Below are positions 2,714-45,976 of a DNA stretch of 64,000 nt, piece after piece (the stretch's first letter is position 1; every line of letters starts with the position of its first letter). Source of the stretch: Nitrospirota bacterium (GTDB lineage: Bacteria; Nitrospirota; UBA9217). Location: positions 131,886 through 195,885 of the forward strand of contig CAVWHO010000014.1 of the NCBI GenBank assembly GCA_963754875.1, written 5' to 3'. The position numbers and the translations under genes are program-made. A model generated the notes under the pieces. The model did not search any database. It had not been told where the DNA came from and worked only from the letters and a program-made list of their open reading frames with translations.

Positions 2714-3162
2714 CATCTCCTTCTTGAATGGGTCGAAAAGACAGTTGATGTCAACGAGACAACACGCTTCTAGCTGCTTCACCTAGTCGCTTGTGGGTTT
2801 TTTGCACATCCCTTTCGCGTCCTGAATGAAATTTTTGACCCGTCTAAGGCCACGTCCGCTCGATCACGCAAACTCGGCCTACGGCCTCAGACAGTGCGCG
2901 CTCGCCCTTGCAGGACGCTTCCTTAGGCCAAGACGGGTGCCCAAAAATTTCATAGGGCCGCTCCAGGGACGTGCGGATTGGGGTAAACCCCATGCGAAAA
3001 TTTAGCCGGGCGACCGAGTCCGAGGGTGAAGCATTTCGGACTGTCTGAGCCAGAAGGGCGAGTTTCCGAAATGTACCGAGGACGACCGAGGCTGGCGTAA
3101 AGAATTTTCGCCGGGTGCCCTTCTTTGGGTCACCTTTCTTGGGCACGCAAGAAAGGTGACAA
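2714..3162. repeat. ~450 bp structured dispersed repeat, copy 1
   Basis: Closely similar to 30589-31038 and to the reverse complement of 45506-45976; nested inverted repeats. Confidence 0.95.
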
Positions 3163-24987: not shown

Positions 24988-25012
24988 ATCATCTACTTTT
25001 TGAGCATTTGCC

Positions 25013-25184
25013 GGTTCAATCATCCTGATTGAACCCATATATTAATACAAACGAAATAATAATTGTTACATTCCTACGGAATCCCCCTCTCCCCGCTGGG
25101 GAGAGGACAAAGGTGAGGGGCAAAAGCTGTAACAAAGGAAAAGGCGTTTGTATTAGTGCTCGGATCAATCTGCAAGATTGAACC
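25013..25184. repeat. MITE-like nested inverted-repeat element, copy 1
   Basis: Outer GGTTCAATC-N5-GATTGAACC palindromes in inverted orientation, inner TAATACAAACG/CGTTTGTATTA, central REP-like hairpin. Core matches the reverse complement of 49607-49747. Confidence 0.75.
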
Positions 25185-25235
25185 AGCCATGAGAGATTCG
25201 GGAAAAATTGACGTTCCGCAAGTAAGGAGGCTCCA

Positions 25236-30588: not shown

Positions 30589-31038
30589 CATCTCCTTCTT
30601 GAGTGGGTCGAAAAGACAGTTGATGTCAACGAGACAACACGCTTCTAGCTGCTTCACTTGGTCGCTTGTGGATTTTTTTGCACATCCCTTTCGCGTCCTG
30701 AATGAAATTTCTGACCCGTCTAAGGCCACGTCCGCTCGCCCGCGCAAACTCGGCCTGCGGCCTCAGACATGCGCGTTCGTCCTTCGGAACGCTGCCTTAG
30801 GCCTTGACGGGTGCCCAGAAATTTCATAGGGCCGCTCCAGGGACGTGCGGGGTTTGGGGTAAACCCCATGCGAAGATCCAGGCAGGCGACCGAGTCCGAG
30901 GGTGAAGCATTTCGGACTGTCTGAGCCCTAAGGGCGAGTTTCCGAAATGTACCGAGGACTACCGAGCATGCCGTAAAGGATATTCGCCGGGTGCCCTTCT
31001 TTGGGTCACCTTTCTTGGGCACGCAAGAAAGGTGACAA
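30589..31038. repeat. ~450 bp structured dispersed repeat, copy 2
   Basis: Aligns along its full length to 2714-3162. Confidence 0.95.
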
Positions 31039-31088: not shown

Positions 31089-33063
31089 TTAAATTGTCGT
31101 TGTCTCTTCGTCGGAATAATTACTTTCCTGGCCGTTTAGGTCCACATCCGAGACGACAAAATAATAAGTCCCATGCATGAGGGTCAATGTCTTGGTAACA
31201 GTAGCGGTCGCAGGATTGGGAATACTTATGACCTGTGTATAAACTCCTGATGCGGTCCCGTAATATATTTTATATGTTGATATATCAGTCGCGGGGTTCA
31301 ACGGGGTCCCATCTGAATACGACGTCGGGGCGTCCCAGGTAAGCGTTACAACAGGCGGCGCTGTAGCTGTCAGTGATGCGGTTCCTGAAACGCCTCCCTT
31401 GACCGATGAAATTGTGGTTGATCCGACGGCAACGGCAGTCACCAGCCCTTGTGAGCCGGCTGCATTTGAGATCGTTGCAACACCCGTGTTCGAGGAATTC
31501 CAGGTAGCTAGTGCGGTCAGGTCCTGCGTTGTGCTGTCTGAGAACGTGCCGATCGCAGTAAACTGCTGCGTCAACCCGGCAGTGGGAGAAGAAGCACTAG
31601 GAGTTACGGCGATTGAAAGCAATATCGCCGGAGTTATTGTCAATAGGGTTGATCCTTGTATGCTCCCTGATGTCGCCGTGATCGTTGTCGGGCCAATGGC
31701 TATCGGGGTGACGAAGCCTTTTGAACCCGCGGCATTGCTGATGGCTGCGACAGTTGCTGCTGATGAACCCCAGGTCACTGCCGTAGTAAGGTTTTGCGTA
31801 GAACCGTCGGAGTACGTCCCCACGGCAGTGAATTGCTTTGTGGTCCCCAGCGCTATGCTCGGACTGGACGGCGTTATTGCCAGGGAGATGAGCGTTGCCG
31901 GCGTTACAGTCAGAGTCGTACTTCCGGAAACGCCTCCCACGGTCGCTGCGATCGTTGTCGAGCCGACAGCCACCGCGGTGATGAGTCCTTTTGAACTTGC
32001 GGCATTGCTGATGGCTGCGACAGTTGCTGTTGATGAACTCCAGGTCACTGTGGTAGTAAGGTTTTGCGTCGAACCGTCGGAGTACGTCCCCACGGCAGTG
32101 AATTGCTTTGTGGTCCCCAGCGCTATGCTCTGGACTGGACGGCGCTATTGCCACGGAGACGAGCGTTGCCGGCGTTACGGTAAAGGTCGTGCTGTTGGAA
32201 AGACCTCCCAATGTCGCTGTGATCGTTGCTGACCCGGCCGCCATGGGTGTCGCCGATCCATTCGAACCGACAGCATTGCTGATTGTGGCTGTTGAAGCGG
32301 AAGAAGAACTCCAGGTTACAGACGCAGTGATATCCTGGGTCGAGTTGTCGGAATATGTTCCGGTTGCGATGAACTGTTGAGAAGTCCCGAGGGCGGTGCC
32401 CGGGTTTGTCGGAGAGATCGAAATGGATACAAGCCTGGCTGCCGTGACAGTCAACGTATCGGAGCCCGAGATATTGGTGGCCGGATCGGTGGCAGTGATC
32501 GTCGTTGTGCCCGCGGATGCCGAGGTAGCAAAGCCCGAAGCCATACTGATGGTCGCTACATTAGTGGCTGAGGACCTCCACGTAACGATGCTTGTTATGT
32601 CTTGCGTGGTGTTGTCAGAGTAGATCCCCGTGGCTGTAAATTGTTGCGTCGTTCCTTTGGCGATGGTCGGATTAGTCGGGGTCACTGAAATAGATTGGAG
32701 CGTTGCCGCAGTAACCGTCAGGGTAGTGGACGCGGTTGTTGTCCCGTCCGTGGCAATGATCGTGGTCGTACCGACGGCCGTTGCCTTGGCCACGCCCGAA
32801 CTATTGATCGTCGCAATTCCCGGGTCCGAGGAACTCCAGTTGATCGTTGTTGTTATGTCCTGTGTGGAATGGTCGGAAGAAATGCCGGTGGCATTATACT
32901 GCAGTGTCGTGCCCTTCGCGACAGTCGGATTAGTAGGAGTGATTTCTACGGGCTGTAATGCTGCGTTCGCGTTATCCGGGCTCGCGCCGCCTCCGCCGCC
33001 GCAAGCGGAGAGGAACATGGATGCGGAGAAAAACAATGCGTATATTTTATGATTAAATTTCAT
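31089..33063 (-). CDS. Ig-like (Big_2) repeat lipoprotein with a +1 frameshift near 32131
   Basis: Lipobox LSAC-GGGG, about six ~90-aa repeats (QF.A.G.YSD..TQD.T..V.W.SS), FN3-like tail. One extra base relative to the neighbouring 270-nt repeat unit. Confidence 0.85.
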
Positions 33064-33770
33064 GCGACCTACCTCACATGAACTCCACCGGTCATTGCGC
33101 CAGGGGGAGGTTGGGTTTTAAGATGTGAGGGCCCTAAAAAATTGGTCCAGTCAAAAGGGGAATTTCTGATATGGTAAAATATTTTATTGCGGTAATTCTA
33201 AAAGTGTTCTCTCGATTCCGTTGTTCGTGGGATTGTTCTCTGCCGTGTCCTCCATTGTTATTGGCGAGGTAACATCTCATACAGCCGGGAAAATTCAAAT
33301 TTTCTTTTATATGATTATCAAGTTAAAAACGATTTTCGGAGAGGTGCTGAAAATCCACACCAAGACATCAGTTTGGGGCCCGCTGGTATCATTTGAGAAT
33401 GAAAGGGGCCCGCAGCAGCGTCCTTTTGAAACCGAAAACGGACGCAACTATAACATCTTTGAAACTCAGTTTTTAAGCTTTTGCATCAGGAAGATACTGC
33501 TTTTGAAACGAGGAAACTGATTAATGTCCTTTTACTGAAGCCGGAAAAGCTGTGCGGCAGTTCAGGATGAGCCCTTACCGGGGGCTCTATTTAACTGGGC
33601 ATGATGCTATCATATATCAAAATATAGTCAAGTTAAAAATTTTTCAACAAGCTTAAGAACTTTTTGGGACAACATAATTTTTTATGGTTTTTGGTGCGTT
33701 TATTATTGATCTCCGCATTAGTAATGCAATAGACCATATTCATGGAAATAAATTATGGCCGCGAGATTTT

Positions 33771-33863
33771 TCTCCCCTTCAAGGGGAGGATTAAGGTGGG
33801 GATGGGTTTTGCAAAGCTGCTGTAGACCCATCCTCACCCAGCCCTCTCCTTGAAGGAGAGGGG
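33771..33863. repeat. Inverted pair of REP-like palindromes
   Basis: CTCCCCTTCAAGGGGAGG..GGTGGGGATGGG and CCCATCCTCACCCAGCCCTCTCCTTGAAGGAGAGGG. Confidence 0.75.
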
Positions 33864-33945
33864 AATTGATCGTACCCTTCGCGCAATGCCTATGCGATGG
33901 ATGATTGTATGTTGCATTACTTATGCGGCGCTCTATAATCAAACA

Positions 33946-33995
33946 TTGACACTGGTGCACGATTAATGCATATTAATCCATTCAATAATGCATAT
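33946..33995 (+). promoter_or_regulatory. Putative vapB promoter/operator
   Basis: TTGACA at 33946; TAATGCATAT at 33964 and again at 33986, overlapping the -10 region. Confidence 0.55.
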
Positions 33996-34009
33996 CTGGA
34001 CAGGGAGAG

Positions 34010-34213
34010 ATGGTCATGCGGACAACACTCAATATCGAAGACGCATTGTTTGAGAAAGCGTCAAAATTAACCGGCATAAAAGAGAAAACCTCGCTCATTA
34101 AGCGCGGGCTTGAATCGTTGATCGCGATAGAAAGCGCAAAAAGGCTTGCTCATTTGGGTGGTACCGAAAAAGGCTTGAAGACAATACCCCGCAGGCGAAC
34201 GGCAGGAAAGTAA
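34010..34213 (+). CDS. vapB: VapB-family antitoxin
   Basis: MRTTLNIEDAL..KA..LTGIKEKT.L...GL..LI..ESA.RLA.LGG. Confidence 0.85.
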   Translation: MVMRTTLNIEDALFEKASKLTGIKEKTSLIKRGLESLIAIESAKRLAHLGGTEKGLKTIPRRRTAGK

Positions 34214-34214
34214 C

Positions 34215-34232
34215 ATGGTCCTGGTCGATAGT
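34215..34232 (+). pseudogene. VapC (PIN) N-terminal stub
   Basis: ATG 1 nt after the vapB stop reads MVLVD(S), the PIN beta-1/Asp motif; similarity is then lost and the frame closes within about 30 codons. Confidence 0.65.
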
Positions 34233-34400
34233 CTGAATTTTTATAGAAAAATGTTCCACAATATAAAAACCCTTTGGGAATGCTGGGAAGAAAAGACGTC
34301 ATGATATGATGACTCTGTCATCCTGAGTTGACAGGTTTTTCAATTCCGCCTTGCATTTTTCCCCATTCTGTAATATTCTTTTCTTATCAAGAATCATTTT

Positions 34401-34736
34401 ATGGGGACTGAACTAATGATTGCGCTCGGTAAAATTGCTGCAGCAGCAAAGGTTCTTGTGGATGCAGCCCATCCTCTTAAAATAGTCCTGTTCGGCTCTT
34501 ACGCTCAGGGCACACCGACAGAAGATTCAGACCTAGACCTGCTGGTGATCGAACGGAGCTTACCCAACAAGCTTGACGAAATGGTGCGGCTGCGCCGTCT
34601 GCTGCGCCCGTTACGAATTCCCGTTGATGTTCTTGTGTACTCCGAAGATGAAGTCCGGGAATGGGGCCACTTGCCGGGGACAACTCTTTACTGGGCCTTA
34701 CGCGAGGGGAAAATTCTTCATGAAGCAACCAGCTAA
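34401..34736 (+). CDS. Minimal nucleotidyltransferase (MNT antitoxin)
   Basis: LFGSYAQG....DSDLDLLV, PVDVLV, ALREGKILH. Confidence 0.88.
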   Translation: MGTELMIALGKIAAAAKVLVDAAHPLKIVLFGSYAQGTPTEDSDLDLLVIERSLPNKLDEMVRLRRLLRPLRIPVDVLVYSEDEVREWGHLPGTTLYWALREGKILHEATS

Positions 34737-34776
34737 TCTCGCACGCGCTTCTTGCTGGTTCAATCATTCTGATTGA
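34720..34776 (+). pseudogene. Probable HEPN toxin N-terminal stub
   Basis: Overlapping ATG reads MKQPANLARA, then runs into the repeat and stops. HEPN identity is inferred from position after the MNT gene. Confidence 0.55.
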
Positions 34777-34895
34777 ACCGAAATAGTAACCACCGACTCT
34801 TCCGACAGCCCATCGCATGGTATCCTTTGGCCCCCCTTGCTTTTTCCCTTTTCCTGGTCTATGTTTGAATCAAAGAACCAAAAACCACGTCATCA
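34750..34895 (+). repeat. ~145 bp direct repeat, copy 1 (palindrome plus duplicate of the lhr upstream region)
   Basis: Matches 35406-35549; ends ACGTCATCA versus ATGTCATCA at the lhr start. Confidence 0.95.
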
Positions 34896-35156
34896 TCCGT
34901 TTGATAAGTTTTGCAGGACGTCGTTGCGAGACTCGACACAACGAGCCACCCCGCATCGGTTGAACTCAGACTTGGCCCAACGCACTCAGAGAATTTATTT
35001 GGGTAAAAGACCGTTTTAACCCGGCATTTATTACGCCAAGTTCAACCGGGCGAAACCATAACCTGAGCAACCCCTTGCAATTGCCGACTGGAAAATATAA
35101 AATGATAGTATTGAAAAGTAGTCGCGTTCTCTGGCATGGTGAAAGCGGAGGTACCT

Positions 35157-35384
35157 ATGGGACATAAAGTGGCAGAAGCCATTATAGAAAACGGAAAATT
35201 GACTCATGTAGATAAGGATCTGCCTAAAGGCAAAATTAAGGTTCACATCATTTATGACGTGGATGAAGAAACGATTAATGTAGATACCGCTGCGCTTGTT
35301 AAAGAAACTTGTGGGATATACAAGGACAGTGATGCCGGACATGAGGCAAAGAAAATGAGGGCAGAGTGGGAGCGTCATGCCTGA
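35157..35384 (+). CDS. Probable antitoxin (AF2212/DUF104-like)
   Basis: GGAGG RBS; EAIIENGKL N-terminus, MRAEWER C-terminus; overlaps a PIN-like start. Confidence 0.6.
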   Translation: MGHKVAEAIIENGKLTHVDKDLPKGKIKVHIIYDVDEETINVDTAALVKETCGIYKDSDAGHEAKKMRAEWERHA

Positions 35385-35442
35385 AAGCGACTTTCTGATT
35401 GATACTCTTGCTGGTTCAATCATTCTGATTGAACCGAAATAG
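35377..35442 (+). pseudogene. VapC (PIN) N-terminal stub
   Basis: Overlapping ATG reads MPESDFLIDT, then enters the repeat and stops. Confidence 0.65.
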
Positions 35443-35549
35443 TAACCACCGACTTTTCCGACAGCCATCGCATGTATCCTTCGGCCCCCCTTGCTTTTTC
35501 CCTCCTCCTGGTCTATGTTTGAAGCAAAGGACCGAAAACCATGTCATCA
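35406..35549 (+). repeat. ~145 bp direct repeat, copy 2
   Basis: Matches 34750-34895. Confidence 0.95.
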
Positions 35550-38500
35550 ACAGGCCTCTCGTTGTTCCATTCCCTGATCAAACAATGGTTCTCCGAAAAG
35601 GTCGGCACGCCGACCGACGTGCAGGAGAAAGCCTGGCCCGAGATCGCGAAAGGCAGTCATGTGCTCGTGACCGCGCCCACGGGCTGCGGCAAGACCTTGG
35701 CCGCGTTTCTCTGGAGCATCAACCAACTCGTCTCGGGCGTCTGGACCGGTGGCAAGGTCCGCGTTCTCTATATCTCTCCGCTCAAGGCACTGAACAACGA
35801 CGTCCAGCGAAACCTGCTCAAGCCCCTCGGTGAGCTGCGGGACTATTTTAGCCGCGCCGGAGCGGCTTTTCCGGAAATCCGCGTGCTCACCCGGAGCGGG
35901 GACACGCCGGGCGAGGAAAGGCGCAGGATGATCAGGAGGCCGCCGGAAATCTTGATCACCACGCCTGAGTCTCTGAATCTGCTCCTTACCTCCCGGAGCG
36001 GGCGGTCGATCCTCACCGGGATCGCGACCGTGATCCTCGATGAGATCCACGCAGTCGTTGGTTCGAAGCGCGGCACGCACCTGATCACGGCTGTTGACCG
36101 GCTCGTTCCCCTCTGCGGAGAGTTCCAGCGCATCGCGCTCTCTGCAACGGTCAATCCCGCGGAGCGGGTGGCGGAATTCGTGGGCGGGTTCCGCAAGATC
36201 GGGAAAGGCAGGGACAGCCATTTCGAAAAGCGTCCTGTTACGCTCATCCAGTCCCGCCAGGCAAAGACCTACGATATCACGGTCTCGTTCCCGGCTGATG
36301 CGCGGGAGAAGATGGTCGACGGTTCCTGGTGGCCTGCGCTCATCGATGCGTTCAGGGAAATCATCAACCAGCACCGATCGACCCTGCTCTTCGCGAACAG
36401 CAGGAGGACCACGGAAAAGGTGACACGGCTGATCAACGAGGCAGAGGAAGCCGAGCTTGCCTATGCCCACCACGGGTCTCTCTCCCGCGAGATCCGGCTG
36501 GCAGTGGAGCAGAAATTAAAGAACGGGGAGCTCAAGGCCATCGTTGCAACGAACTCGCTGGAGCTCGGCATCGACATCGGGGCACTCGACAGGGTCATCA
36601 TGGTCCAGACGCCGAAATCGGTTTCCTCGGCCTTGCAGCGCATCGGCAGGTCGGGCCACGGCGTAGGGGAAACGAGCCGCGGCATGCTCTTCCCGACCCA
36701 TGGCCGAGATTTTATCGACGCGGCGGTCATGGCGCGCGCAAGCCTGGACCAAGACATCGAAGAGGTCCATCCCATAGAAGCGCCGCTCGATATCCTGGCG
36801 CAGATCATCCTCTCGATGTGTGCAATGGAAACGTGGGACATCGACGAGCTGTATGCGTTTTTAAAAACGAGCTACCCGTACCGCGATTTGCCCCGCAAAC
36901 ACTTCGACATCCTGCTCGAAATGCTCTCCGGCCGGTACGCAGACAGCCGTTTGCGGGAGCTGAAGGCCCGGGTCTCGCTTGACAAGGTGGACAATACGAT
37001 CAAAGCGCACAGCGAAGTTCCCTTCCTTATATATACGTCGGGCGGGACCATCCCTGAGCGCGGCTACTTCGATTTGCGGCTCAAAGACACCCATGCAAAG
37101 ATCGGCGAGCTCGACGAGGAATTCGTGTGGGAGCGTTCCCTCGGCGAGACCTTTACCCTGGGGACCCAGCTCTGGAGGATCGAGAAGATCACGCACAACG
37201 ACGTGGAGGTCGTGCCGGTCCGTTCCGCCACGGGCATCTTTCCGTTCTGGAAAGCGGAGCCGCAGGACCGCGATTTTCATTTCTCCGAAAAGATCGGCCT
37301 CTTCCTCGAACACGCGGACGGGAAGCTCGATGCTCCCGATTTCCGGCAGGAGCTTCTGGACAAGCATGCCATGGAAAAAACGGCTGCCGACGAACTCATC
37401 GGGTTTTTAAAACTCCAGAAAGAGGCGACCGGAACAAGCCTCCCGCACCGCCACAACCTTTTGATCGAGCACGTGGAGGAGCCCGGAGGACGCGGCGATT
37501 TCAAACAGGTGATCCTGCACACCTTCTGGGGAGGACGGGTGAACCGGCCCTTTGCGCTTGCCCTGGCCCAGGCCTGGGAGGAGAAAGAGAGAACGCCGCT
37601 CCAGTTTATCGAGAACGACGATGCCATTCTGCTCATGCTGCCGCGGCAGTTCGAGGCCCATGACCTCTTTTCTTTCCTCACGCCCGAAACCGTGGAGTCC
37701 TTTCTCCGGAAGAGGCTGGAGCAGACGGGATTTTTCGGGGCGCGGTTCCGGGAGAACGCAGAGCGGGCGCTCCTGCTGCCCAAGTCGAGCTTCAAGCGGA
37801 GAATGCCGCTCTGGGTCATCCGGCTCAGGTCCAAGGAGCTGCTTGCGGCGGTCCATTCCTACGAGGACTTCCCGATCCTGCTCGAAACGTGGCGCACCTG
37901 CCTGGAAGACGAGTTCGATCTCCGGCACGTCAAGACGATGATCGAAGAGCTTCAGACAGGGATGGTCCGCGTGAGCGAAACCGTTACCAGGGCGGCCTCA
38001 CCTTTTGCCGGGAACCTCGTCTGGAAGCAGACGAACAAGTATATGTACGAGGACGATACACCGGTCCTGGCAAAAGAGTCGGCCCTCCGGCCCGATCTGA
38101 TCAAAGAGCTTCTGTTCTCCTCGCACCTCCGTCCGAAGGTCCCTTCTGAACTGGTCCGCGTCCTGGACAGCAAGCTCAAGCGCACGGCCCCGGGATACCC
38201 GCCGGGTTCAGCCATCGAGCTTCTGGACTGGGTGAAGGAGCGGCTGCTGGTCCCGGAACCGGAGTGGAAGGAGCTGGCAATCTCGATCAGGAGGGACCAT
38301 GAACAGGACCCGGGAGAGTGGCTTGCTTCCCAGGCAAGGAAGCTCTTTTGGATAAGCTGGCCCGGCGTCAGGCATGCCCTTCTGTGCAGCCTCGAAATGC
38401 TGCCGAAGGCGGTCGTTGCCTTCCGCCTACACACGGACGTTCTCTCGATCCAGCCCGTGAGTGCCAATGAAAAAGCGGATACCGTCAAACGGCGGGTCCT

Positions 38501-40004
38501 GTCATTCCTGCGCGACGTTCCCGAGTCCGCTCAAACGCCTGAAGAGTACGATCTTACGGGCTTTCTTTCCGAGTGGCTGTCTTTTTACGGGCCTGTGGAA
38601 AAAGAAAGCCTGGTCTCTCTGCTCGGCATCACCGCAGAAAGGATCGATGAAGCGATCGAACCTTTGATAGAAACGCAGGACCTCGTCATGGACCGCTTTG
38701 GCGAAGAGAGCAGGGTGCTTGAAATCTGCGACAGCGGAAATCTCGAGATCCTGCTCCGCATGACGCGGCGCTATCGCCAGCCGACCTTCGAGCCCCTGCC
38801 GCTTTCGCAGCTCCCGCTGTTTTTGGCGGCCTGGCAGGGGATCAGTCCGCGAGGCGAATCCATGGACGATTTTCAGCAAAGACTGGAGCAGCTCTTCGGG
38901 TTCCCTGCGCCCGTGGGCGCGTGGGAGGAATATATCCTCTCCAGCCGCATGCAGCAGTACCGGAGCGAGTGGCTGGACACGCTCATGGACCAGAGCGACC
39001 TCATCTGGTTCGGCTGCGGGAAACAGCGCATCAGCCTCGCCTTCAGCCAGGACCTGGAGCTCTTCCGTCCTGTGGCCGGATCAGAGCACGATGGAGAGCT
39101 TTCGCTCCTGATCCCCGACCGCCGCGGCAGGTACAGTTTCCTGGAGATAACCGAGTTCTCCCACATGGACAGTGTTCATGCGACAGAGCTTTTGTGGAAA
39201 GAGGCATGGAAGGGGAATGTGACGAGCGATTCGTTCAAGACCCTCAGAAAGGGCGCCATGACCGGGTTCTCGGCGCAATCAATCAGCGACGAGGCCAGAC
39301 TTGCCTCACGCAGGTCGGGATTCAACCGCTGGAAGGTTTCCCGGCCCTTGGAAGGCCACTGGCTCAGGATCGATTCCCTGCCGCAGGAGCGCGATATTCT
39401 CGAAAACGAAGAGCTCGTGAAAGACCGCATACGGCAGCTTTTGAAGCGCTACGGCGTGCTGTTCCGCGATCTTACGGCGAACGAGTTGTCGCCGCTCCAG
39501 TGGCGGGCAATGTTCCGGTCGCTTCGGCTGATGGAGCTCTCGGGCGAGGTGCTGTCAGGCTATTTCTTCGAGGGCGTATCTGGCCCGCAGTTTGTTTCCC
39601 ACGAGGCCTTCCGCATGCTGCAGGAGCCGCTGCCCAAGGACGCCGTTTTCTGGGTCAACGCGGCCGATCCCGCCTCGCCCTGCGGGCTGGGACTAACTGC
39701 ATTATCAGGCCTTCCTTCGCGCATCGCCTCGACGCATCTCGTGTATCACGGAAGCGGGCTCGTCATGATCTCGAAACGATCGGGAAAAAATCTTGAGATC
39801 CTTGTCCAGCCTGATGACGCGCATCTTGCCGAATATTTCGCCTTGTTCAAGGATCTGCTCGCGCGCGAGTTCAATCCTGTCCAGAAAATAACGATCGAGG
39901 CGGTTAATGGCGAACCTGCACTGCAGAGCCCCTATGCCACGGCGCTGAAAGGGTACGGGTTCAGGTCAGCGAGGAATGCGCTGGAGTTGTGGAAGGAATA
40001 TTAG
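35541..40004 (+). CDS. lhr: Lhr-family ATP-dependent DEAD/DEAH helicase (long form)
   Basis: APTGCGKT, YISPLKALNND, DEIH, SAT, HHGSLS, SLELGIDIG, QRIGRSGH, LL.RYGV C-terminal domain. Confidence 0.93.
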   Translation: MSSTGLSLFHSLIKQWFSEKVGTPTDVQEKAWPEIAKGSHVLVTAPTGCGKTLAAFLWSINQLVSGVWTGGKVRVLYISPLKALNNDVQRNLLKPLGELRDYFSRAGAAFPEIRVLTRSGDTPGEERRRMIRRPPEILITTPESLNLLLTSRSGRSILTGIATVILDEIHAVVGSKRGTHLITAVDRLVPLCGEFQRIALSATVNPAERVAEFVGGFRKIGKGRDSHFEKRPVTLIQSRQAKTYDITVSFPADAREKMVDGSWWPALIDAFREIINQHRSTLLFANSRRTTEKVTRLINEAEEAELAYAHHGSLSREIRLAVEQKLKNGELKAIVATNSLELGIDIGALDRVIMVQTPKSVSSALQRIGRSGHGVGETSRGMLFPTHGRDFIDAAVMARASLDQDIEEVHPIEAPLDILAQIILSMCAMETWDIDELYAFLKTSYPYRDLPRKHFDILLEMLSGRYADSRLRELKARVSLDKVDNTIKAHSEVPFLIYTSGGTIPERGYFDLRLKDTHAKIGELDEEFVWERSLGETFTLGTQLWRIEKITHNDVEVVPVRSATGIFPFWKAEPQDRDFHFSEKIGLFLEHADGKLDAPDFRQELLDKHAMEKTAADELIGFLKLQKEATGTSLPHRHNLLIEHVEEPGGRGDFKQVILHTFWGGRVNRPFALALAQAWEEKERTPLQFIENDDAILLMLPRQFEAHDLFSFLTPETVESFLRKRLEQTGFFGARFRENAERALLLPKSSFKRRMPLWVIRLRSKELLAAVHSYEDFPILLETWRTCLEDEFDLRHVKTMIEELQTGMVRVSETVTRAASPFAGNLVWKQTNKYMYEDDTPVLAKESALRPDLIKELLFSSHLRPKVPSELVRVLDSKLKRTAPGYPPGSAIELLDWVKERLLVPEPEWKELAISIRRDHEQDPGEWLASQARKLFWISWPGVRHALLCSLEMLPKAVVAFRLHTDVLSIQPVSANEKADTVKRRVLSFLRDVPESAQTPEEYDLTGFLSEWLSFYGPVEKESLVSLLGITAERIDEAIEPLIETQDLVMDRFGEESRVLEICDSGNLEILLRMTRRYRQPTFEPLPLSQLPLFLAAWQGISPRGESMDDFQQRLEQLFGFPAPVGAWEEYILSSRMQQYRSEWLDTLMDQSDLIWFGCGKQRISLAFSQDLELFRPVAGSEHDGELSLLIPDRRGRYSFLEITEFSHMDSVHATELLWKEAWKGNVTSDSFKTLRKGAMTGFSAQSISDEARLASRRSGFNRWKVSRPLEGHWLRIDSLPQERDILENEELVKDRIRQLLKRYGVLFRDLTANELSPLQWRAMFRSLRLMELSGEVLSGYFFEGVSGPQFVSHEAFRMLQEPLPKDAVFWVNAADPASPCGLGLTALSGLPSRIASTHLVYHGSGLVMISKRSGKNLEILVQPDDAHLAEYFALFKDLLAREFNPVQKITIEAVNGEPALQSPYATALKGYGFRSARNALELWKEY

Positions 40005-45505: not shown

Positions 45506-45976
45506 TTGTCACCTTTCTTGCGTGCCCAAGAAAGGTGACCCAAAGAAGGGCACCCGGCGAATATCCTTTACGGCATGCTCGGTCGCCTGCACCCAGCGAA
45601 AACGAGTGCTCGGGGCGCGAGTGCAGGGTGTCCTCACTCCACGTGGGAAATGACCTGTATTCGCGCGGCGCACTCATAAGCACTGGCCACAGGCTCGCCC
45701 TTCGGGCTCAGACAGTCTGAAATGCTTAACCCTCGTCCTCGGTCGCATGCCTAGATTTTCGCATGGGAAGCTTTTAGTGAAACATCTTTAAACCAACCCC
45801 GCATATCTCCGGAGCGGACCTATGAAATTTTGGGGCACACGTCTTGGCCTAAGGAAGCGTCCCGCAAGGGCGAGCGCGCACTGTCTGAGGCCGAAGGCCG
45901 AGTTTGCGCGATCGAGCGGACGTGGCCTTAGACGGGTCAAAAATTTCATTCAGGCCGCGAAGGGGATATGCAAAAA
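45506..45976. repeat. Structured dispersed repeat, copy 3 (inverted, with an extra internal hairpin)
   Basis: Reverse complement of copies 1 and 2; extra segment at about 45587-45694. Confidence 0.92.

Follow-up and report, generated by a model that had tools for sequence, protein, structure and literature searches.

Three antitoxin genes with truncated toxin partners upstream of lhr are probably remnants of eroded toxin–antitoxin modules

Introduction

Why should a chromosome carry three antitoxin or antitoxin-like genes in a row and only 5–10 codons of the toxin partner of each? Such a tandem lies upstream of the helicase gene lhr in the window analysed here (the whole stretch of 64,000 nucleotides), where three intact ORFs occupy positions 34010–34213, 34401–34736 and 35157–35384. 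The pertinent passages of Belot et al. 2026 (PMC13617665) describe chromosomal toxin–antitoxin (TA) systems that co-localise in small spots and erode toxin-first, with 185 toxin-only versus 8 antitoxin-only pseudogenes. Orphan antitoxins, with a median of nine per strain in Klebsiella, have been read as remnants, regulators or anti-addiction modules in the corresponding passages of the literature (PMC7192599, PMC10790755, PMC7354431). A reading made from the letters alone (the sequence-only reading) had taken the three genes for an anti-addiction or immunity stockpile, possibly built by repeated recombination at a palindrome.

Results

Three antitoxin genes keep the starts of three toxin genes

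The locus consists of the following features.

33946–33974, plus strand: sigma-70-like promoter of the vapBC module, TTGACA-17-CATATT (10/12 consensus match; kept upstream of vapB homologues)
34010–34213, plus strand: vapB antitoxin gene, intact ORF (Pfam PF09957, VapB_antitoxin, over cut-off)
34215–34230, plus strand: vapC 5' stub, MVLVD (aligns with the vapC start of genome G026; alignment ends at 34230)
34227–34278, plus strand: end of a second dispersed repeat, ATAGT..GAATTTTTATAGAAAA..AAAACCCTTTGGG, unrelated to REP (G001 has 6 copies and G002 has 3; its left boundary is sharp)
34314–34345, plus strand: terminator-like hairpin and T run between modules 1 and 2 (consensus scan; not above shuffle expectation)
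34401–34736, plus strand: MNT (minimal nucleotidyltransferase) gene, intact ORF (Pfam PF01909, NTP_transf_2, and PF18765, Polbeta, over cut-off)
34720–34749, plus strand: HEPN 5' stub, MKQPANLARA, overlapping the MNT stop (aligns with the intact HEPN start in L042; alignment ends at the repeat)
34750–34895, plus strand: repeat copy 1, with REP end (34750–34779), decayed REP interior, lhr promoter copy and three lhr codons
34896–35074, no strand: spacer brought in with module 3 (63 other family genomes searched without a match)
35075–35103, plus strand: sigma-70-like promoter of module 3, TTGCAA-17-TAAAAT (9/12 consensus match)
35157–35384, plus strand: predicted antitoxin of an unnamed family, intact ORF (homologues directly upstream of an overlapping PIN gene or PIN remains in 24/26 loci)
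35377–35405, plus strand: PIN 5' stub, MPESDFLIDT, overlapping the antitoxin stop (aligns with the PIN starts of L180, L187 and L194; alignment ends at the repeat)
35406–35549, plus strand: repeat copy 2, with REP end (35406–35435), decayed interior, lhr promoter TTGCTT-17-TATGTT and lhr start
35541–40004, plus strand: lhr helicase gene, intact, 1487 aa, right-hand anchor of the hotspot (Pfam DEAD, Helicase_C, WH_Lhr and DEAD_assoc on the first 1153 aa)

The sequence-only reading had placed the three genes correctly, and its proposal that the short peptides behind them are toxin-gene starts is borne out. Each stub (16 nt of vapC, 30 nt of HEPN and 29 nt of PIN) aligns base by base with the intact downstream gene of homologous loci, and each alignment ends at the junction. 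The partner genes in these loci are PIN, HEPN and PIN by Pfam for modules 1, 2 and 3, respectively. Pfam also assigns the intact vapB and MNT ORFs to antitoxin families; the third gene is placed by position only. That the partners are toxic and are neutralised by the upstream genes would be the expectation at the level of families. As each antitoxin gene still carries the start of its toxin gene, the evidence for an origin by decay is direct. No 3' remainder of the vapC, HEPN or PIN toxin gene was found in this genome, and simple insertion into the toxin genes is therefore ruled out.

The vapB homologues, which are 75–89% identical, begin at the second ATG (34016) and lie upstream of intact vapC. 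Full-length vapC was confirmed in 11 of the 13 homologous loci, and one more reads on as vapC over an unmeasured length; in one of the 13 (L154) it is the vapB homologue that breaks off, after 14 codons, and another module follows. Related sequencing runs continue as vapC from 34230, the point at which the stub of the window ends. Here the stub is joined across a common ATA to the second dispersed repeat (34227–34278), which is present as a single copy in this genome and is likely the end of a mobile element. An ORF about 350 nt from one copy of this repeat is presumably IS91-like. Elsewhere (L156, L158–L165) the ATAGT boundary is sharp as well, and about 250 bp are common to the copies of G001 and G002.

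The homologues of the MNT gene begin at 34416 and sit upstream of HEPN genes. The protein has the GS..D.D motif and falls below the cut-off of NCBIfam MntA. HEPN is intact in nine of 14 homologous loci and shortened in three, two of them short stubs; the other two loci are at a contig end.

The third gene matched no Pfam or NCBIfam family, and Pfam gave no match for six out of six members of its family. Its earlier label, AF2212-like (PF01954), is a weak hint (in Atlas it stands at rank 19 with a score of 0.85, and the family is found on 30% of members), and the structure model of the protein has a pTM of 0.31 and no PDB fold match. Relatives were found by an alignment query; an earlier protein scan of the genome collection had found none, and a first pattern scan of metagenomes gave no match. 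After one weak 19-residue match of 27 had been left out, 26 loci could be considered, 25 of them scoreable and one at a contig end. The PIN ORF is intact in 11/25 and broken in 14/25. Ten of the broken genes lack the rest of the gene, with approximately 0–81 codons kept, and four have a disrupted remainder; three of the ten deletion-type losses are as short as that of the window. The family (alignment A2) is consistently coupled to one PIN clade in several phyla, and its toxin is broken in more than half of the loci.

The repeat combines a REP end with the lhr promoter

The direct repeat at which the two later stubs end had been described as headed by a perfect palindrome. The repeat is indeed present at 34750–34895 and 35406–35549, but it begins with TCTTGCT, and the palindrome, with its 10-bp arms, follows 7 nt further on (34757 and 35413). 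The two copies are 93% identical (8 substitutions and two 1-nt indels; E 1e-54). Their first base can be assigned to either side, which gives stub lengths of 30–31 nt for HEPN and 29–30 nt for PIN. Copy 1 ends after three lhr codons, the lhr start ATG having become ACG. The lhr promoter motif occurs in the 4.3-Mb genome only in the two repeat copies and is found upstream of lhr in 17 of 18 relatives. Rather than a dedicated recombination site, the 146-bp repeat is one end of a dispersed hairpin of REP type to which the promoter and the first three codons of lhr are attached. In a test for an integron, we found this REP–promoter composition of the repeat and, as neighbours, an Ig-domain gene and lhr; the attC consensus was compared with the repeat by eye. 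The window has no tRNA, so a reading of the locus as a tRNA island was dropped. An Rfam search gave just three hairpin matches, all below threshold.

The lhr promoter (L024, L172–L174, L023; 34750–34895) is unusually conserved, over about 30 bp including the spacer. In several lineages extra copies of it, with 9–130 nt of lhr, remain between cargo genes. They may indicate a site for a regulator and repeated replacement of the 5' end of lhr. At L126:1551–1800 (G006:C23), a REP, a promoter region and three codons of the downstream gene are duplicated in tandem, a unit of the same type as that of the window, without cargo.

The REP-type hairpin occurs at 11 places in this genome, two of which are the copies described above, and in 20 of 64 family genomes; a control pattern occurred at none. 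We assign the element to a REP-type family because inverted copies of it flank a REP-associated tyrosine transposase (RAYT; NCBIfam NF047646, over cut-off) in G026 and G022. Its short, dispersed, extragenic hairpins, mostly in inverted doublets of about 66 bp, resemble the REP, BIME and REPIN elements and the REPtrons of TnpA-REP, as far as the pertinent passages describe them (PMC3333891, PMC8266576, PMC6006769). Unlike REPtrons with a GTAG foot, the window copies keep one hairpin each, and this genome yielded no matching RAYT, its best match being 28% identical; among the 64 family genomes just two have a matching RAYT, neither of them in this genus. The GTAG-type guide tetranucleotide is absent from the REP foot, which consists of a pyrimidine tract and GCT, and the element is thus REP-like of another class. 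In the five bases outside GCTGG (positions −5 to −1), 71–89% are pyrimidines at 121 distinct ends. Hence the shared TCTT is the element's own end, and both later stubs stop there.

The two non-GTAG REPtron loci are L089:1501–2093 (G026:C3) and L127:1310–1900 (G022:C334), and in them two hairpin types form the 66-bp doublet. The ends of the IS200-like element of this genome (12 copies) and of its seven Y1 transposase loci that are longer or divergent differ from the window palindrome. A further REP copy, with another hairpin between its arms, lies at 25010–25187 of the window, where a block of EPS genes meets the gene presumed to encode an exosortase.

Two toxin genes end at the same REP end

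Modules 2 and 3 share a breakpoint, as had been proposed: HEPN and PIN are joined to the same REP end. The broader proposal, that the array was possibly built by repeated recombination at the palindrome, does not extend to the vapC stub, which is joined to the other repeat. Two different toxin genes cut at one REP end within one base are hard to get by random deletion. An antitoxin gene with a toxin stub was found at three of the 121 distinct REP ends in a scan that leaves aside ends less than 100 nt away from the edge of a locus; two of these are in the window, and the third (G003) joins an intact RelB-like gene with a 26-nt ParE stub. Other joints at the same REP end are the start of a Fic gene (G185) and the tandem duplication at L126. 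Gene starts are also joined to REP ends in this genome (C22) and in L131, and we take them to belong to an IS4 transposase and an integrase, respectively.

In E. coli, TnpA-REP cuts at a C|T some distance away on either side of a REP and carries out strand transfer, according to the relevant passages of PMC3333891 and PMC8266576, and the model given in the former allows excision, tandem amplification and gene-fragment capture. A CT stands near 91 of the 121 REP ends, compared with 83 ± 4 expected from a composition-preserving permutation (p ~0.04; the ends are not independent). Before this composition control, CT was present at 72–75% of the ends versus 17–35% further upstream; the excess is mostly base composition. 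A matching RAYT is rare and the CT excess is small. We regard the REP end as a preferred joint; the joints would have been made either by a RAYT of this family that was present earlier or through hairpin processing by the host. None of the papers met in the literature search deals with REP-anchored toxin loss or describes a tandem array of orphan antitoxins in combination with REP; captured gene fragments are the subject of figure S7 of PMC3333891, which may be relevant here.

The site upstream of lhr is a hotspot of gene gain and loss

Four public runs were compared with the window at 85% likeness. One of them, X1, contains a single low-depth contig of 1830 nt from a relative about 93% alike, which reads 33326–33616, 33946–34230, 358 other letters and 35407–36157. 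A full vapC needs 341 nt more, leaving 17 of the 358 letters, which are known by length only. In run X2 a loose end at 34230 reads on as vapC. The most likely ancestor, judging by these contigs, would have had an intact vapBC directly before a single repeat. With its vapB–vapC-sized unit before a single repeat and lhr, the relative most likely places the gain of modules 2 and 3 and of the second repeat, and every toxin loss, after this ancestral state. The relative's repeat differs from both copies at 35442–35462 and agrees with copy 1 at 35524 and 35534, which fits duplication after the split. A similar REP–promoter junction in G003 indicates that the REP was present before the modules.

The same site has taken up other cargo elsewhere. 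In G026 an intact vapBC lies between an old lhr promoter with a 130-nt lhr 5' remnant and a second promoter. Three metagenome loci have the left junction of G026 with other cargo, and they are counted once together with it because this junction is common to them. In G003, three copies of the lhr promoter stand around unrelated genes. Altogether, extra lhr-promoter copies flank other cargo in 2/18 relatives and 3/13 metagenome loci, and one conserved block is found upstream of lhr in 8/18 relatives. The expectation of variable content upstream of lhr was thus confirmed, but that of antitoxin arrays was not: such an array is found in 0/18 relatives and 0/13 metagenome loci, which represent other species, not strains. 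The site upstream of lhr is a hotspot of repeated gene gain and loss. It resembles the hotspots of horizontal transfer flanked by core genes of Oliveira et al. 2017 (PMC5635113), with variable cargo beside a conserved gene and no resident mobile element; unlike those, it keeps old copies of the lhr promoter and 5' end as scars between cargo.

Several other elements lie in the window. A long nested palindrome at 33699–33942, built on the CCCTCTCC/GGAGAGGG hairpin family and with similar copies in G009, stands in place of about 120 other bases present in the X1 relative. An Ig-like (Big_2) repeat lipoprotein gene at 31089–33063 (minus strand) is split across two frames by a frameshift or an assembly indel. 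A MITE-like dispersed repeat of 450 bp has three copies (2714–3162, 30589–31038 and 45506–45976), of which the first two are 92% alike.

Discussion

The explanation that we consider probable is that the three genes are intact antitoxin or antitoxin-like genes left over from TA modules, which likely arrived successively in the turnover hotspot before lhr, and that the toxins were likely lost by deletion, two of the deletions ending at the outer end of the resident REP hairpin. Starting from an ancestor with the order vapBC–REP–promoter–lhr, foreign DNA with a repeat end and MNT–HEPN would have entered vapC at codon 5–6. A deletion could then have joined HEPN codon 10 to the REP end, with loss of the remainder of HEPN and vapC. 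The unit of REP, promoter and three codons would next have been duplicated, either as a REP-anchored tandem, as in L126, or because a sister allele was taken up with lhr as its anchor, as in G026. Finally, module 3 would have come between the copies, and its PIN gene would have been joined to the second REP end.

For the most part the locus likely reflects the usual erosion of TAs at a hotspot, in which the REP end is a preferred breakpoint. An antitoxin cannot be lost before its toxin. Antitoxins that are the first genes of their operons, and that overlap the toxin starts, would persist for this reason, and no lasting benefit would be needed. Orphan antitoxins with broken toxins of the same families are found at unrelated sites without the window repeat and with many cut positions. 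Clusters of two orphans with stubs, some of whose partners are presumed, occur in G021 (L043) and G003 (L123). As in the eroding clusters of type II TAs in the passages of PMC13617665, several modules occupy a small interval by a conserved gene, the toxin is truncated first, and the content varies among relatives. Unlike there, the toxins of the window are cut to 5–10 codons with two cuts at one REP end, and those passages draw no link to REPs. Against plain decay, 15 other antitoxin-family matches inspected in this genome mostly keep an adjacent partner ORF and none (0/15) has a clear short toxin stub; vapB homologues, too, mostly keep vapC (11/13), and short PIN losses are 3/10. Three stubs in a row exceed the genome baseline.

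This clustering is also what speaks for selection of the antitoxins to neutralise the toxins of incoming plasmids, islands or phages or to cross-regulate other TAs. We find such a selected stockpile unlikely. All three genes keep open frames and promoter-like sequences despite the 7% divergence of the repeat, which would fit some selection, and they may thus be functional. Anti-addiction has been shown for CcdA and proposed for orphan antitoxins, but the relevant part of PMC7354431 treats its common use as still to be shown. In the anti-addiction literature cited above (PMC7192599, PMC10790755, PMC7354431), the passages on orphan antitoxins describe intact ORFs without a toxin, as here; unlike these, the genes of the window carry toxin starts, and no cognate target was found. 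Relatives of vapB are present on 256 plasmid records, but all are less than 60% identical; MNT has one weak plasmid match, and no plasmid matches the third gene. The sampling of mobile elements from this lineage is sparse. Among ten PIN and four HEPN matches genome-wide there is no close cognate toxin: the best VapC is 28% identical, the best PIN 29% and the best HEPN 44%, the last one beside its own MNT. Furthermore, none of the 18 relatives has the antitoxin set upstream of lhr, toxin-first decay predicts the same pattern, orphans with broken toxins of the same families exist elsewhere, and in L154 it is the antitoxin that became a stub. The stockpile put forward by the sequence-only reading is hence unsupported.

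Equally doubtful is an integron-like array driven by a RAYT that would nick single strands at the REP end and fuse this end with sites near the starts of upstream genes, thus repeatedly disarming incoming TAs and duplicating REP–promoter units. The RAYT flanked by inverted REP copies in G026 and G022, the published C|T cleavage, strand transfer, tandem amplification and fragment capture of TnpA-REP (within the passages of PMC3333891), the stubs of 26–31 nt at three toxin junctions and the further gene-start stubs at REP ends all agree with it. The PIN joint fits C|T exactly, but the HEPN joint requires one extra T and the vapC stub is not at a REP. The scarcity of matching RAYTs (2/64 family genomes, none of the genus, 28% at best here), the toxin stubs at only 3/121 REP ends, two of them those of the window, and the CT count of 91/121 against 83 ± 4 also argue against it. 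We hold it to be quite improbable that the non-GTAG REP and RAYT form a toxin-disarming device, in which the REP end would be joined about 30 nt into the toxin, the overlapping antitoxin would be spared, and duplication of REP and promoter would build expressed arrays of orphan antitoxins that protect the host.

An assembly artefact, in which the repeat would have served to string the alleles of two strains together, is very hard to credit: the assembly is unverified, frameshifts occur nearby in the Ig-domain gene and in two TA partner genes, and none of the four public runs spans the whole stretch, but the repeat copies differ at 10/146 positions, copy 1 lacks the lhr start codon and is followed by unique DNA, the independent X1 relative is colinear with both flanks and has the single-repeat junction in line with them, and similar structures exist in other genomes.

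In summary, with erosion at a hotspot as the preferred reading, the locus clearly illustrates the way in which addiction modules disappear from chromosomes, and a relative still displays the ancestral state. It also shows that natural deletion joints accumulate at the end of a REP family with an identifiable RAYT. The in vivo products of RAYTs are described as poorly known, and an in vivo system is called for, in the passages of PMC3333891 on this subject; the REP-end joints predict RAYT cut sites. If the toxin-disarming reading were true, it would provide a host function for RAYTs and a route by which orphan antitoxins originate.
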